Below, piece by piece: positions 15,417-20,718 of a DNA stretch of 26,179 nucleotides. Within the stretch, counting starts at the first letter, position 1. Every line of letters begins with the position of its first letter. The notes below the pieces were generated by a model. It did not search any database. It was not told where the DNA came from and saw only the letters and a list, made by a program, of their open reading frames with translations. The DNA is from Thermoproteaceae archaeon (lineage in GTDB: Archaea; Thermoproteota; Thermoprotei; Thermoproteales; Thermoproteaceae), in assembly GCA_020833025.1 (NCBI GenBank), contig JAJHRB010000016.1:1-26179 (forward strand), given 5' to 3'. Made by a program: the position numbers and the translations under genes.

Positions 15417-16442
15417 CTAACAGATCCGCGGCACGAGATCGCCACGCGGGGGCTCCAAGATCCTGAAGCCGCCGGCCTGCGTCTTCAGGAGGACATAGCC
15501 GCTGTACCTCCGCGACTCTCTGAACTCGCCTATCACTTTCGCGTTCAGGAAGCCGAGCGAGCGCACGAAATTCAGAACCTCGCCGGCGACGGAGGGGTCT
15601 ACCGCGAGCACGGCAACGCCCTCGCTCGCTAGATAGAGCGGGTCTATCCCGAGCATGTGCGAGTATGACGCGACCTCGGGCCTAATCGGTATCGCCTCCT
15701 CGTCGACCACCACGACCCCGCCGCCCGCCCTTGCCCAGTCGTTCAGCACCATTGCGAGGCCGCCTCTCGTCGGGTCGCGCGCTGCGTGAATGTAGCTCCC
15801 GTACTTCTCAAGCAGCGGGACCATAAGCCTCACGAGCGGCTTGACGTCGCTCTTGAGACCTCTCGGGCTCTCGCCGTGCTGCAGCATCATTATCACGGCG
15901 CCGTGATCGCCGACGTAATCCGAGACCAGGATCTTATCGCCCGGCCTCGGCCTGTCTACTATCAGCCTCTCCGCCACGCCTACTCCCACGGTAGTTATTA
16001 TAACCTTGTCCAGCTGCCCCCGCGGCATGACCTTGAAGTCGCCGCCGATGAGGGCAATTCCCTCGGACCTTAGCACCGAGAGGAACGAGCTCACTATTCT
16101 CTCCAGGTCCTCCACTGGGAATCCCTCCTCGACGACTATCGCGTCCATCATGGCGACGGGCCTCCCGCCCAGCATGAGCACGTCGTTTATGGAGCCGCAT
16201 GCGGCGAGAAGGCCGATGTCGCCGCCTGGGAAGAACGGGGGGCTGACAGTGTACGAGTCAACTGTGATCACTAGGTAGCGCCCGTCTCCCATCGGCACCG
16301 CGGCGGCGTCATCGGGGAAGTCGAGGCCGAGACCTCCCGGCACTTTCTTGAAGACGTCTGGCAGCCTGGCGATGAAGAGCCTCTCGATTATCTCGGCAGT
16401 CTCCACGCCTCCAGAGCCGTGCGAGAGCCTCACGACCGCCAC
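15417..16442 (-). CDS. hypE: Hydrogenase maturation protein HypE
   Basis: LSHGSGG, DSYTVSPPFFPGGDIG, GGDFKV, ARDPTRGG, LASEG and C-terminal PRIC. Confidence 0.95.
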   Translation of the reverse strand: MAVVRLSHGSGGVETAEIIERLFIARLPDVFKKVPGGLGLDFPDDAAAVPMGDGRYLVITVDSYTVSPPFFPGGDIGLLAACGSINDVLMLGGRPVAMMDAIVVEEGFPVEDLERIVSSFLSVLRSEGIALIGGDFKVMPRGQLDKVIITTVGVGVAERLIVDRPRPGDKILVSDYVGDHGAVIMMLQHGESPRGLKSDVKPLVRLMVPLLEKYGSYIHAARDPTRGGLAMVLNDWARAGGGVVVVDEEAIPIRPEVASYSHMLGIDPLYLASEGVAVLAVDPSVAGEVLNFVRSLGFLNAKVIGEFRESRRYSGYVLLKTQAGGFRILEPPRGDLVPRIC

Positions 16443-16547
16443 TCCCGTCGACTGCTGTGGGCTTTTTGAAGTAGCCCGTCGGAGCGTCCCGCCGCCCCGC
16501 AGCCGAGAGGCCTTCCCGGGGGCCTCGAAGGGGCAAGATCTGGGCGC

Positions 16548-17289
16548 TCAGATGAACGAGCGGTAGAGATTCCCGTAGCGCCCCGGCTTTCCGCGAATTG
16601 CTATTTGATGCCCGCACTTGGGGCACTTGTTGCTCTCACGCAAGTCAATTTTGATAACCCTGTCCCCCGCTCTCTTAATCACGGCGTGTCCGCAATTGGG
16701 ACAGTAAGTGTGCTGGCCGGGGTGCCCCGGTATGTTGCCGACATAAACGTAATCCAGCTCTTTCCTGGCTCTGCGCCAGATCTCCTCGACGAGCTCCGGC
16801 GGCGTGGGCGGGTTGGTCAGTTTATGCGCTGGGAAGTACGCAGCTATGTGCAGCGGCACACTGCGCCCGAACGACGCCACTGTGTCGATTACTTCGTCTG
16901 CCTCGTCGTCGTTAACGCCTGGGATCACGAGGTACGTGAACTCCAGGTGAACGCCGAGCGACATTGCAGCCCTCGCCGTGGAGATCAGGCGCTCAAGAAA
17001 GGCGCCGAGCCACTGCCTGTAAGTGCGCCTCCCACCCTTTATGTCCACGTTCATCGCCTCCATGCCCGCCCTCGCGAGTCTGGCCGCAGCCTCCTCAGTC
17101 AGATAACCGTTGGTATTTATGGAGGCGTGAAGGCCCGCCTCTCTCGCCAGTCTGAACAAGTCCTCGGCGTACTCTGCCAGCAGCGTGGGCTCGTTGAAAC
17201 TAATATTGATTCCAGCGTCGCCATTTTCGAGGGCCCACCTGACGAGCTGCTCAGGCTCGACGTAGCGCCCCAGAAGCGACGCCGTCTTG
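16548..17289 (-). pseudogene. Radical SAM enzyme (AmmeMemoRadiSam / PFL-activating-like), 3' part, interrupted gene
   Basis: Frame open from ...KTASLLGRYVEPEQLV; SFNEPT, INTNGY, NVDIKG, LVIPGVND, FPAHK, YVYVGN, TYCPNCG. No N-terminal cluster motif in this half. Confidence 0.9.
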
Positions 17290-18765
17290 CCGGGGAGACG
17301 CTCTACGCTCTAGAGCGCTCGGTATAGCTAGAGACGTGAGCTTCGTGGATAGCTCACTTGTACTTGAAGAGGGGTAATAGTTTGCTGCTGGGAAAAAATG
17401 TAAGTGTCTTTGGAGAATCTTCGTTGCCATTTCTTTTTGCTTGGGCGTGCCGCTTGCAGCCCTGCCGATGAGATATGTTGCTATCGTCTTTCTAATCGAC
17501 TCGTTTTCTTCTGCCAATTTCAGGAGGTCTGTCATGGCGACGTACGTCACGTAACTGCGGCCGGAGCGAATTATATTCGGTCTGAGTCCGATTGCTTCTA
17601 GCTTTTTGGCGACCTCCGTTGCGTCTTCGAGTTTGGTAGTATAGTATTCGGCCCAGACAGAGCCGCCGTTGCTGATTACTAGGCGTAAAGACATTTCTAT
17701 ACCTGCTATGACTATTCTGTTGCTTCCCCACTTTCTACCACTCTTTTGTTGTTTGTATATTGTTCTAAAAGTATCGTCTGTAGCGAGTTTTATACTAATC
17801 CACTTATGCGATTTGAGCAATTCTAGTAACTTGCCATAGACGCCAGCGGCTTTCCAAAGTTTTGCATATGCCTCCTTGCCTGATGCGATGAGAGCGCTAT
17901 AAGGCCCGATAGCGCGACCCAATTTCCAAGGGTTCTTAGATCCAACTAGTAGGTAGTATCTATTTCTTCGCAGTATATTAGACAGCTCGGCGCTTCCGTC
18001 CCCGAGCCACATTGTGAATAGCGGCATCCATATTCCGTCCTTTGAATATTTGACAACGCGATCTATACTATCTTCTTTATTCTGCTGTTTCCAGCTCTTT
18101 GCTGTCGCCCTCACCAGTATGCTTACTCCTTCCTGTGTTAAATAGACAAAGACAACGCGTATGCGCACCTCTCCGTGCCTTACGGAAATCCATGCGATAA
18201 GCTGCCAAGGCTGAGTGGTGCTCATCGTAGGCCGGTTGCGCTCGCTGCCCTCATCGCTTGCCCTCCAGCCGAGCTGTAACAGCTTGAGACTCTCCTGCGG
18301 GAGCTTCAATATGTCCGGGAAGTACGTGTTTGCGCCTATGCCGTGAATCGGGATAATTGGAGGGAATGGAGGCCTGCTAACGTACATCCATGTCCCATCT
18401 GGCGCGTACAGTCTCTTGCCCCCTATTCGGTAGGTGCCCTCGACAATGGCTTTGTATAGTGTCGTCAGTCTATTCCTTGCCTGCATCCACGCCTCCAGCA
18501 AGAGACACGTCAGCGCGTCCCGGAAGTGCATGAGCTGCCTTCTCTCCTCCTCAGTGAGCGGGAACGTCTCTATTATCTTCCGCACGGCGTAATCGACGTA
18601 GGCGATCCACGCAGGGAAGGCCCAGTCCAGCGGGCCGCGGAGGGCGCCTCGCCTGGAGACCTCCTCAAGCACCTCGTCGAGCGCCGGCGGCCTCTCGGCC
18701 GGTTTCAGTGCAAGCTCCAGGCGGCGCTTGAGCTCCTCCATGCTGGCTGTGGCGCTTTCCTCCAT
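17251..18765 (-). CDS. PaRep2a/2b-family protein with two degenerate LAGLIDADG-like motifs
   Basis: N-terminus LKPAERPPALDEVLEEVSRRGALRGPLDWAFPAW...RLYAPDGTWM resembles Pyrobaculum paREP2 proteins as I recall them; motifs LLQLGWRASDEG (aa162-173) and PLFTMWLGDGS (aa248-258). Confidence 0.8.
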   Translation of the reverse strand: MEESATASMEELKRRLELALKPAERPPALDEVLEEVSRRGALRGPLDWAFPAWIAYVDYAVRKIIETFPLTEEERRQLMHFRDALTCLLLEAWMQARNRLTTLYKAIVEGTYRIGGKRLYAPDGTWMYVSRPPFPPIIPIHGIGANTYFPDILKLPQESLKLLQLGWRASDEGSERNRPTMSTTQPWQLIAWISVRHGEVRIRVVFVYLTQEGVSILVRATAKSWKQQNKEDSIDRVVKYSKDGIWMPLFTMWLGDGSAELSNILRRNRYYLLVGSKNPWKLGRAIGPYSALIASGKEAYAKLWKAAGVYGKLLELLKSHKWISIKLATDDTFRTIYKQQKSGRKWGSNRIVIAGIEMSLRLVISNGGSVWAEYYTTKLEDATEVAKKLEAIGLRPNIIRSGRSYVTYVAMTDLLKLAEENESIRKTIATYLIGRAASGTPKQKEMATKILQRHLHFFPAANYYPSSSTSELSTKLTSLAIPSALERRASPRQDGVASGALRRA

Positions 18766-19037
18766 GGCGCGCGGAGATGCGCCGGGATATAAGCGGGCGC
18801 GGTAAGCAGGCGCGACCGCGGTGGGCTGGAAGTTTTGGCGCGCACTTGAGCGGCGGGCGCCCTCCAGGGGCCTGTACCAGCGTAGTGCCCACCGCGGCGC
18901 GCGCCGATCACGACGCAGCGCGCGACCCCGCGCGGCAGCACCAGGGCCGGAGGCGCGCGAACTCGGCCACGAAAGGCGCAGGCCCCGCGCATTAGGCTTT
19001 CGACTCCCCGCCCCGCTGCCAAAGAGGGCTGAGGTTA
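17290..19037 (-). mobile_element. ~1.75-kb insertion (PaRep2/LAGLIDADG-like cassette) splitting the radical SAM gene
   Basis: Lies between the two collinear halves of one enzyme; carries its own promoter and a single ORF; much of it is markedly lower in GC than the flanks. Exact ends are inferred from frame restoration (+/-1 nt ambiguity; one alternative junction possible). Confidence 0.8.
18787..18792 (-). promoter_or_regulatory. TATA box inside the insertion, driving the PaRep2 ORF
   Basis: TTATAT on the minus strand ~22 nt before ATG 18765, in otherwise very GC-rich sequence. Confidence 0.6.
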
Positions 19038-19348
19038 CTCACATGCCAATTCTGGCACCACGCGCACGGGAAGTTGCAAGCCCACGTGCTGATTGTCAGG
19101 GCAGACGTGCCGGGGTAGAAGTGATACAGCGGCTTTATCTCCATGGGCCTGGACTCTGCTGCCGTCAGCAGGCCGTACGCGGCGGTGTACAACTTGCCGC
19201 GCAGGTTAAACCTCATGCCGCACGCACCGATAGCGCCGTCGCGAAGCCTGCACTTGCGGTGGCACAGAGTGCACATCACCACGTCGCCGAGTCTCACGGA
19301 GTAGTGCGACTCGCGGACGTTCTGGAGTCTCAAGAGGCGCTCGCTCAC
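19038..19348 (-). pseudogene. Radical SAM enzyme, 5' part (contains CxxxCxxC), interrupted gene
   Basis: CTLCHRKC, GACGMRFN, PMEIKPLYHFYPG and CNFPCAWCQNW, typical of the AmmeMemoRadiSam radical SAM enzyme; GTG 19348 with TTTATT ~25 nt upstream. Confidence 0.9.
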
Positions 19349-19563
19349 AGTGTAGACCGCTTGGGGCCATGAATAAACCGGCACGGCGTGTAGGCTGCCC
19401 GCGTAAAAAGCTGCGCGCAAGGCATAAAAACGAGGGCGCAGAAGCGCGCGAGGAGCAGTGACTGCCGAGGGCGAGCCTGAACGCCCGTGTTGACACCGGG
19501 CCGGCGAGACAGGCCGGCGCGCCAGTCACATTGAAGCTTTAATTCGCGAGCGCCGCGCCAGCA

Positions 19564-20718
19564 GTGGCGCTTCCGAGAGCGTTCGTGACGTCCGTCGTGG
19601 GCTCGTGGCCGCGCCCGCCGTGGCTCATAGATGCATTCGAGCGGTACAGCAAAGGCGCGCTCGACCAGCAGCTGCTAAACCAGTACCTAGACGATGCCGT
19701 AAAGCTGGCCATCAAGGACCAGGAAGAGGCTGGCATCGACGTGATAACTGACGGCGAGCAGAGGCGCGTGTCTTTCGTCGCATTTTTGGGCCAGAAGGTG
19801 CGCGGATTTAGGGTCGTGAGGGTCGAGGAGCTCCACCCGAGCGCGAGGGAGATAATGAGGAGACACAAGGCGCCCCTGACGCTGTGGCGCCCGGTTATAG
19901 CGGGGTATATCGAGGACAGCATTATAGCACTTGACGAGGTGCAGTACGCCAAGAGGGTGACGCAGAAGCCGCTCAAGGTGACGCTGCCCTCGCCTTATCT
20001 AGTCATGTGGGAGTCGTGGCACGCGCAGATATCATCGCCGTACTACCCGAGACCGGAGGACGCGGCCGAGGCCTACGTGAGGGTGCTCAGAAAGGAGATC
20101 TCCAGGTTGATAGACGCGGGCGTCGCCTTCGTGCAGCTCGACGAGCCAATGCTGGGAGACCTCTTAGAAGCCGAGCCGGACAAGCCGGACCGCTACAAGC
20201 GCGTCGTGTCGGAGATATACGGCCAGAAGTACAGAGGGCTCCGCGACGAGATCCAGCTCGCCGTGGATCTAATAAACGAGGCCGTGGGCGGCTACATCAC
20301 GTCTGTGCGCGTCGGGGTTCACTTAGACAGGTGGCCCGCCGAGGACTCTCCCGTCGTGGGTTACGAGAGGCTGGCGCCGCATATCTTTGACCTCAAGACG
20401 AAGCAGTACGTCGTTGAGTACAAGCACCCGCGCATGGGCGACCCGGAGGAGTTCGCGAGGGTGCTGCCGAGCGACAAGGAAATAGGCCTGGGCTCGGTAG
20501 ACGTCAGAGATGCAGGACGCGTTGAGACCGTGGAGGAGGTGGTGGCGCACGTTGAGAGGGTGGCAAAACATGTCGACCCCGCTCGCATTTGGATAAACCC
20601 TGACTGCGGATTCGCGCCGGGCATGTACCGCGCGTTCCCGAGATCCGTGGCGCTTGAGAAGCTGAAGGTAATGGTAAGGGCGGCGAGACTCCTCCGCGAG
20701 CGCTACTGGTGGGCGTGA
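19564..20718 (+). CDS. metE: Cobalamin-independent methionine synthase-like protein (catalytic/core domain only)
   Basis: TSVVGSWPRP, QEEAGIDVITDGEQRR, VQLDEP, VVEY, GLGSVDV, WINPDCGF; single-barrel size; H-x-C Zn motif appears as H-L-D. Confidence 0.8.
   Translation: MALPRAFVTSVVGSWPRPPWLIDAFERYSKGALDQQLLNQYLDDAVKLAIKDQEEAGIDVITDGEQRRVSFVAFLGQKVRGFRVVRVEELHPSAREIMRRHKAPLTLWRPVIAGYIEDSIIALDEVQYAKRVTQKPLKVTLPSPYLVMWESWHAQISSPYYPRPEDAAEAYVRVLRKEISRLIDAGVAFVQLDEPMLGDLLEAEPDKPDRYKRVVSEIYGQKYRGLRDEIQLAVDLINEAVGGYITSVRVGVHLDRWPAEDSPVVGYERLAPHIFDLKTKQYVVEYKHPRMGDPEEFARVLPSDKEIGLGSVDVRDAGRVETVEEVVAHVERVAKHVDPARIWINPDCGFAPGMYRAFPRSVALEKLKVMVRAARLLRERYWWA

Follow-up and report, generated by a model that had tools for sequence, protein, structure and literature searches.

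A gene cassette for a protein with a predicted LAGLIDADG fold interrupts a radical SAM gene in a Pyrobaculum species

The stretch of DNA analysed here (the window; 26,179 nt) is contig JAJHRB010000016.1 of a Thermoproteaceae archaeon (assembly GCA_020833025.1), listed below as contig C32 of G000, a metagenome-assembled genome of 1.56 Mb in 126 contigs, which the names of its protein relatives place in Pyrobaculum. A radical SAM (rSAM) gene of the AmmeMemoRadiSam type is cut in two pieces in the window by an insert of 1748 nt (19037-17290), which carries an open reading frame (ORF) for a protein of 504 aa. The insert is probably a selfish, free-standing gene cassette of the homing-endonuclease type that entered the rSAM gene by break repair. 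All coordinates are window positions, and the rSAM gene, the insert and the cassette ORF all lie on the minus strand.

The two pieces of the rSAM gene matched TIGR04337 with 80.8 and 138 bits. Orthologues in 14+ related genomes are whole (365-368 aa) and read CAWCQNWHLSK(T/V)AS. The 5′ part ('exon 1') holds the N-terminal Cys cluster and CNFPCAWC; its GTG start at 19384 was adopted from an intact allele, P0300, the alternative start at 19348 being that of an earlier interpretation made from the letters of the window (the sequence-only reading). Joining 19038 to 17289 yields CAWCQNWHVSKTASLLGRYVEPE / CAWCQNWHVSKTAS, as in that reading; an insert-less form would be joined as ...TGGCATGTGAG-CAAGACGG... 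and be ~1.75 kb shorter. The joined frame from GTG 19348 comprises 311+742 = 1053 nt, and the intact orthologues read alike, in agreement with the earlier claim that removal of the insert restores the frame. The break had been placed 4 codons after CxxxCxxC; it actually lies 6 codons (QNWHVS) past the last Cys. The AMMECR1 gene of G000 is on a contig other than the window.

The intact allele was found in the 90%-identity protein cluster of the rSAM C part, which includes one full-length member of 362 aa, P0300 (220.6 bits against TIGR04337, a borderline score for a cut-off of 220). On its contig, L081, the gene has the same neighbours as in the window, namely a MetE-like gene, an AIR-synthase-like gene and MetRS. 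This empty allele and the window are 92-94% identical in nucleotide sequence, and the alignments end at 19035 and resume at 17290 with an overlap of 4 nt; nothing at the target was therefore duplicated and nothing was lost. Owing to short microhomologies the cut can be placed at five neighbouring positions with an identical product each, and the alignment with uninterrupted genes that had been proposed earlier fixes the junction, through L081, to within 0-4 nt. Neither a target-site duplication nor inverted or direct terminal repeats were detected at the rSAM insert by repeat search and by comparison of the empty and filled alleles. Both junctions lie in unique sequence and are bridged by contigs of four public hot-spring runs from at least two studies (2020, 2023); one contig of 17.4 kb covers the whole split locus at 98% identity. 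The same junctions are present in four further assemblies, which come from JGI, ENA and Logan, represent additional strains (L082/L083, L085 and L086) and include a contig of 116 kb. Five insert-bearing strains were compared in all. The empty-site joint was absent from runs X1-X4, examined as contigs only, which drop rare variants. TIGR04337 halves, uninterrupted orthologues and the empty allele thus agree on the interruption of the rSAM gene, and the insertion is confirmed as real and clean.

The predicted structure of the 504-aa protein confirms a two-domain LAGLIDADG homing-endonuclease fold, as the sequence-only reading had suspected from two motifs; the support is structural and does not extend to any curated sequence model. 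A first full-length model (predicted local distance difference test score, pLDDT, 75) gave weak Foldseek rows and was replaced by a domain model of residues 150-462, built with a more diverse alignment (pLDDT 94.3). When the domain model was compared with 48,161 PDB chains, independently of Foldseek, the top 15 matches were all LAGLIDADG proteins (Z 10.0-6.8, 132-166 residues aligned), after which the scores were Z ~5. Among them are I-WcaI (Z 10.0, 161 residues aligned), I-Tsp061I of a Thermoproteus rRNA intron (Z 9.8, 158/204), E-DreI (Z 8.9, 166), PI-SceI (Z 8.7, 154), WhiA (8dy9_I; Z 8.5, 162), PI-PfuI (Z 8.3, 151) and I-DmoI (Z 7.8, 139). Foldseek likewise retrieved I-Tsp061I (E 6e-4, probability 1.0), and the structural neighbours in the ESM Atlas are LAGLIDADG_3 families.

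The motifs LQLGWRASDEG (residues 162-173; LGWRASDEG at 18282-18247) and MWLGDGS (residues 252-258; ~18018-17992) are placed accordingly in the model, where LGWRASD171-E172-G and WLG-D256-G257 close the helices 157-168 and 247-256. Residues D171, E172, D256 and G257 do not vary among the relatives compared (118 close, 26 distant), even at 22-38% identity. Both catalytic acidic positions, assigned from motif position in the alignment and the model, thus appear to be conserved. The C-terminal extra domain was matched to the I-Tsp061I C-domain (Z 6.9), WhiA (Z 6.7) and I-CreI (Z 5.1). The N-terminal 150 residues are predicted to form long helices and a small sheet with no clear match to other structures. 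The insert has a TATA box of its own (TTATAT at 18792-18787, 27 nt ahead of the ATG at 18765) and this single ORF with its two motifs, as had been read from the sequence.

As judged from sequence comparison, the cassette gene is a member of an unnamed, patchy, multi-copy family of the Thermoproteaceae, with PAE2811 as prototype and distinct from Pfam PaRep2. The earlier label 'PaRep2' was not upheld: in scans of the cassette ORF with curated models (the full Pfam-A set and NCBIfam, cut-off E<0.1), neither PaRep2a nor PaRep2b of Pfam was matched, and the lead to PaRep2 consisted of one sub-threshold match (E 0.0035) on one distant relative. The relative in P. aerophilum IM2 is PAE2811/Q8ZUF4, annotated 'hypothetical protein'. 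More than 900 matching proteins, all 'hypothetical' and mostly 52-58% identical, were retrieved from a set of 5.8 billion proteins, and an exhaustive profile search yielded only 265 clusters (50% identity), among which fragments are frequent. G000 has ~7 copies with 57-67% aa identity; elsewhere, at least 12 copies are present in one genome of another genus and 1-4 diverged copies in others, some with internal stops. Among the genomes searched, the family is absent from many in between. The cultured genomes G005, G002, G008 and G033 have single or few diverged copies, often with one internal TAA, and these may be decaying.

Two further genes were found to be split by members of this family. 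One is an M20 peptidase gene in L074 (JGI sample 3300045908); the member that splits it, P0007, is 56% identical and lies in sense orientation. The peptidase gene is intact in G000:C26, where its flanks are 99.5-99.7% identical to those in L074, and the alignments abut with an overlap of 2 nt ('AA'); this insert of 2290 nt is thus polymorphic within the species and entered without duplication or loss at the target. In G057:C45, from another genus, a family member lying antisense to the host gene, in an insert of ~2243 nt, splits a gene of 376 aa between the positions corresponding to orthologue residues 238 and 240. Both were flagged as split genes (as L074 and L099) when the flanks of ~45 family loci were compared with G000, and beyond the window they are the only split genes among these loci; the rest are in variable, repeat-rich regions, and for most copies the surrounding region has no homologue in G000. 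At one more flagged locus, L107, the two flanks point in opposite directions, and it was set aside. For the rSAM and M20 sites an empty allele is known, and for the third filled site there are intact orthologues. The mobility of the family, which had been proposed from the window, is borne out by these three independent clean gene interruptions.

The expectation that the rSAM locus would define the ends of a mobile element did not hold. Neither the GC-rich leader nor the tail of the rSAM insert has an equivalent among other copies or the genomes of the genus (17 compared): the leader gave weak matches only, to G000:C83, and none among the 17, and the tail gave no match in genus genomes. The three inserts differ from one another in end sequence and in the internal position at which they end; the left end of the M20 insert falls at about codon 19 of a divergent TnpB-like gene with a Cas12f1-like TNB domain, a full copy of which is present at G000:C89:56826-55546, and its leader is a patchwork of short genome-wide repeats. 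The 'TGAA' left of the M20 junction recurs at the matching place in the TnpB-like copies C1 and C95, and could derive from either the donor or the target. None of the three inserts has terminal repeats, whether inverted or direct, or a target duplication, and neither shared subterminal hairpins nor shared flanking tetranucleotides were found across them. The third target site is unlike the rSAM and M20 sites in both orientations. The variable ends point to a gene cassette with variable flanks and not to an element with fixed termini. This pattern fits a break repair that pastes the gene with arbitrary donor flanks, and does not fit a fixed-end transposon or intron.

These observations suggest the following course of events. 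The cassette gene stands alone under a promoter of its own, and its transcript is probably leaderless; its product is predicted to consist of an N-terminal helical region, a monomeric two-domain LAGLIDADG core and a third LAGLIDADG-like domain. A double-strand break would be made by this putative endonuclease, or would come from another source. Break repair using 0-4 nt of microhomology would then join a copy of the gene, together with flanking donor DNA, into the break, a route by which the target would be neither duplicated nor shortened and the element would have no fixed ends. The insertion in the rSAM gene of this Pyrobaculum species is old enough to be common to all five sampled strains.

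Several observations weigh against such a selfish cassette. No near-identical second copy of the rSAM cassette was found, which speaks against a recent jump of this copy. The Pfam LAGLIDADG families PF00961, PF03161 and PF14528 gave no match on the cassette ORF at E<0.1, the sole lead at the sequence level being a sub-threshold match to LAGLIDADG_3 (E 0.0046) on the distant relative P0244, and a profile search against the PDB sequences gave noise only. No significant common target motif was found; GGCATG(G)TGA occurs in the rSAM and M20 sites with P = 0.06. The remaining points concern the rSAM gene itself. Neither half has a stop or a frameshift in any of the five strains. The exons of the five strains have 13 synonymous and 7 non-synonymous variable sites, nearly all transitions, and under a neutral model of transitions only, in which 33% of changes are expected to be synonymous, this excess gives P = 0.004 (P = 5e-5 with the Nei-Gojobori expectation). 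Derived amino-acid changes, polarised by 11 outgroup orthologues, number 9 in the insert lineage and 10 in the intact-allele lineage. Since the junctions are common to all five strains, the exon differences should post-date the insertion; exons of a simply broken gene should drift, and the substitution pattern is contrary to this.

Between the window and L082 the exons differ at 12 synonymous and 5 non-synonymous sites, and the ratio of non-synonymous to synonymous rates (dN/dS) is 0.125 overall and 0.099 for exon 2, the neighbouring genes having 0.04 and 0.17. Exon 1, with 0 synonymous and 2 non-synonymous differences, has too few to judge. The divergence of L082 is ~0.3-0.6% left of the insert and over most of the insert, and 1.5-2.2% in exon 2 and downstream, which indicates that the exon 2/downstream tract was imported by recombination. 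The tract begins inside the insert, with differences at 17443, 17398 and 17335 (3 in the last 154 nt) after 1026 nt with 0; this argues that the donor lineage also carried the insert, three sites being thin evidence. At face value the split rSAM gene seems to be under purifying selection, with recombination as the main caveat, and simple inactivation, one of three outcomes offered by the sequence-only reading, appears doubtful from these substitutions. Under purifying selection, removal from the RNA, removal from the DNA and an enzyme in two pieces remain as options.

Tests of removal were carried out at the junctions. A bulge-helix-bulge (BHB) motif requires a helix of 4 bp and two bulges of 3 nt, and at the five frame-restoring cuts 1-2 of the 4 central pairs are formed; the BHB intron was rejected, as its central helix fails at every one of these cuts. 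A scan of cuts within +/-40-45 nt gave no candidate of the right length. In-frame or relaxed BHB alternatives, such as one leaving 9 extra codons, were at chance level, and L074 has nothing comparable. Group I and group II introns of Rfam gave no match at E<=1 in window 16000-20000. Neither a recombinase gene nor direct repeats for a recombinase were found in the rSAM insert, and the leaders and tails of the three inserts are unrelated, so that they share no conserved RNA structure or recombination site. An intein does not apply either, the insert being 2 mod 3 in length, with a stop 12 codons past the junction and an ORF with its own promoter and ATG; the earlier statement that intein features and an in-frame fusion are lacking is thus correct. 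Frameshift fusion (+1/-1) between the cassette ORF and exon 2 was also considered; it calls for a +1 shift and was set aside as biologically senseless. The 5′ junction (window 19045-19034) reads CAT/GTGAGTAA, like a eukaryotic 5′ splice site, with AAG before ACGGCG on the 3′ side. A GT...AG reading (CAT/GTGAGT ... GCAAG/) is in frame; it removes the conserved V/L-S-K, and in an archaeon, which has no spliceosome, the resemblance was taken as coincidence. The intron offered by the sequence-only reading is therefore not supported as a BHB or other known intron.

The insert could also be a removable intervening sequence, taken out by non-BHB splicing of the transcript or, in part of the cells, by DNA excision, which would allow the full-length enzyme to be made. 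This is rather unlikely. In its favour are the exons, which are intact in both halves in five strains, evolve at a dN/dS of 0.10-0.13 and have gathered no more amino-acid changes than the lineage without the insert; the L082 tract suggesting a donor that carried the insert, a removal exact to the nucleotide and the sense orientation at rSAM and M20 also agree with it. It is opposed by the failed BHB and Rfam searches, by leaders and tails that are unrelated among the three inserts, by the antisense orientation of the third, by the lack of direct repeats for a recombinase in the rSAM insert, and by the possibility that the selection signal was imported by recombination with intact alleles. If it held, the cassette would be a new kind of archaeal protein-gene intervening sequence, removed without BHB, ribozyme, intein or recombinase repeats, whose footprint is the selection; we likewise give this only a minor chance. 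The same exon evidence would suit a split enzyme, in which an N fragment with the Fe-S loop and a C fragment made from the cassette read-through transcript assemble non-covalently. Because the stop codon of the cassette ORF lies 38 nt inside exon 2, the transcript probably continues into this exon, and the NCBI record P0302 is a C-part of 241 aa, whose start, inferred from length, is CTG 17273, 5 codons past the junction. Such an enzyme is improbable: the first canonical start in the frame of exon 2, TTG 17159, gives 203 aa that lack 43 core residues including the INISFNEP strand, there is no promoter or start at the junction, the break falls within the radical SAM core beside the cluster loop, and the exon 1 differences are too few.

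A transposon with defined ends, of PaRep2 or IS200/IS605-TnpB type and moved by a transposase in trans, would also insert cleanly without target duplication or inverted repeats, as IS200/IS605 elements do. TnpB-like genes stand divergently beside some copies and have the promoter module in common with them, and a PaRep2b fragment adjoins one family member, PaREP2b having been termed a putative transposon (PMC3558965). It is nevertheless highly improbable in view of inserts whose boundaries fall at different internal positions (one insert begins near codon 19 of a TnpB-like gene), the lack of shared subterminal hairpins or flanking tetranucleotides, the lack of a Pfam PaRep2 match on the cassette ORF, and a rSAM insert which has neither an HUH nor a serine recombinase gene, nor a TnpB-like gene. 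An assembly artefact that joined a repeat copy into the rSAM gene has next to no probability. The 5′ half of the cassette ORF is indeed repeated elsewhere in the genome, and in the public contig L084 two copies are chimerically joined, with the changeover at the promoter module; the rSAM junctions, in contrast, lie in unique sequence and are bridged in the four runs and in the JGI, ENA and Logan assemblies, and the rSAM halves fit to the nucleotide. The free-standing cassette inserted by break repair thus remains the probable explanation of the insert.

Features of the split rSAM locus (window positions, all on the minus strand)
Feature	Position	Strand	Size	Evidence or remarks
rSAM 5′ part ('exon 1')	19038..19384	-		TIGR04337 positions 8-93; L081 alignment to 19035 at 94.3%; orthologue alignment
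Whole insert	17290..19037	-	1748 nt	Empty/filled allele comparison and repeat search
GC-rich leader	18841..19037	-	197 nt	69-75% GC; specific to the rSAM copy
Conserved promoter module	18766..18840	-	75 nt	CGCCAAAACTTCCAGC ... TTATAT
Cassette ORF, PAE2811-like	17251..18765	-	504 aa	ATG 18765; all family-invariant residues retained
Predicted two-domain LAGLIDADG core	17758..18306	-	residues 154-336	Model with pLDDT 94.3 and PDB structure matches
Putative C-terminal extra domain, like a single LAGLIDADG half-domain	17404..17718	-	residues ~350-454	Weaker evidence
Tail	17290..17394	-	105 nt	Specific to the rSAM copy
rSAM 3′ part ('exon 2')	16548..17289	-		TIGR04337 positions 100-341, PF04055, C-terminal zinc ribbon; L081 alignment from 17290

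The insert is a mosaic in GC content: the host has ~62%, the first third of the insert 66-75% and the 3′ two-thirds 42-50%. Its composition is foreign or mosaic, and this was counted in favour of the cassette. Homology between paralogous copies begins sharply at 18840, the start of the promoter module, and DNA similarity to other copies is limited to the 5′ half of the ORF (76-79%). The conserved core of the ORF stops near residue 457 (RHLHFF; ~17395), and the final 47 residues are read-through across the junction, the ORF entering exon 2 by 38 nt out of frame. The C-terminal tails are unrelated among family members, which indicates read-through into whatever DNA follows.

Differences between strains are uneven along the insert. 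Over window 18200-18840, that is, the 5′ part of the ORF and the promoter module, the strains are 5-7% apart, and over the rest of the ORF at most 0.1%. The public contig L084 changes at 18840 from the C54 copy to the window copy; its upstream part, a chimera with the C54 copy, was excluded from the strain comparison. The GC-rich N-terminal module thus looks like a site of recurrent paralogue gene conversion or of chimeric assembly, the AT-rich LAGLIDADG part being copy-specific. Strain X4/L082 has a 1-nt deletion just past the conserved core (17393-17398), by which its ORF is of 478 aa and not 504, and strain X3 has deletions of 5 nt and 7 nt within the ORF, 24 nt apart (17799, 17823).

The same 75-nt promoter module stands ahead of two unrelated families, the LAGLIDADG family and the TnpB-like genes (G000:C95:16872-16953, C2:22500-22617 and window 18766-18840), which suggests a shared regulator or a shared mobile context. 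The TnpB-like genes with the module have the N-terminus M..AYRALLLKYDI..LPPE. They form a multi-copy family with a Cas12f1-like TNB zinc ribbon, with one full copy (G000:C89:55546-56826, 427 aa), an internally deleted copy of 108 aa (C1:4595-4918) and partial copies on C47, C95 and C2; at C1, L037 and L074 a TnpB-like gene lies head-to-head with a LAGLIDADG-family gene. A repeat of ~100 nt resembling a miniature inverted-repeat transposable element is present at L074:2746-2844 and on at least 15 G000 contigs (e.g. C105:273-371, C107, C4, C52, C94), in both orientations and often as tandem or palindromic pairs. The G000 family copy C1:2886-4322 lies directly upstream of C1:1363-2511, a homologue of the gene split in G057:C45; this adjacency could be a coincidence or an old site association.

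A large unannotated family of more than 900 'hypothetical' proteins would thus have the LAGLIDADG fold as a stand-alone gene that enters protein-coding genes directly. The three filled sites, with their empty alleles or intact orthologues, supply ready substrates for candidate thermostable and probably very specific nucleases, and through them the incorporation of foreign DNA into crenarchaeal genomes by double-strand-break repair can be studied. Should the split rSAM gene indeed still be in use, as its substitutions suggest, there must be either an undescribed way of removing the insert or a radical SAM enzyme that is naturally in two pieces.

Archaeal LAGLIDADG endonucleases are known from inteins and from introns of rRNA, in which the host is spared the cost of insertion by splicing. 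The modelled protein has the same alpha-beta-beta-alpha-beta-beta-alpha two-domain core as I-Tsp061I, I-DmoI, I-PorI and PI-PfuI, with an acidic residue closing each LAGLIDADG helix; I-Tsp061I, from the same host clade (Thermoproteales), is aligned with it at Z 9.8 over 158/204 residues. Unlike the genes of these intron and intein endonucleases, the cassette gene is free-standing with a promoter and is found in protein genes or variable regions and not in rRNA. Its product is longer by ~150 residues at the N-terminus and by a third LAGLIDADG-like domain, and the family is multi-copy (57-67% identical) and lacks a Pfam LAGLIDADG match, its nuclease role being predicted. BHB introns, tens of nucleotides long, are known in the crenarchaeal protein gene cbf5. 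The rSAM insert is like them in that exact removal restores the frame of a crenarchaeal protein gene, whereas it is 1.7 kb long with a promoter and an ORF and has no bulge-helix-bulge at its junctions.

WhiA and other domesticated LAGLIDADG proteins have a matching fold (Z 8.0-8.5). WhiA has lost the catalytic acidic residues and is single-copy and syntenic, whereas the cassette family appears to have kept both and is patchy, multi-copy and fragmented; single-copy relatives such as PAE2811 could be domesticated or decaying. The paREP2 repeats (PaRep2a/PaRep2b) are also multi-copy in Pyrobaculum and occupy the same repeat-rich regions, without a significant sequence match to the cassette ORF. 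The free-standing homing genes of phage T4 (seg/mob) and of organelles likewise stand alone and spread by break repair with donor flanks, without inverted repeats or target duplication. Such homing genes are normally intergenic and home to the same locus, whereas members of the cassette family are found inside coding sequences at unrelated loci, with junctions of 0-4 nt microhomology; this suggests that they insert ectopically and not at an allelic site.

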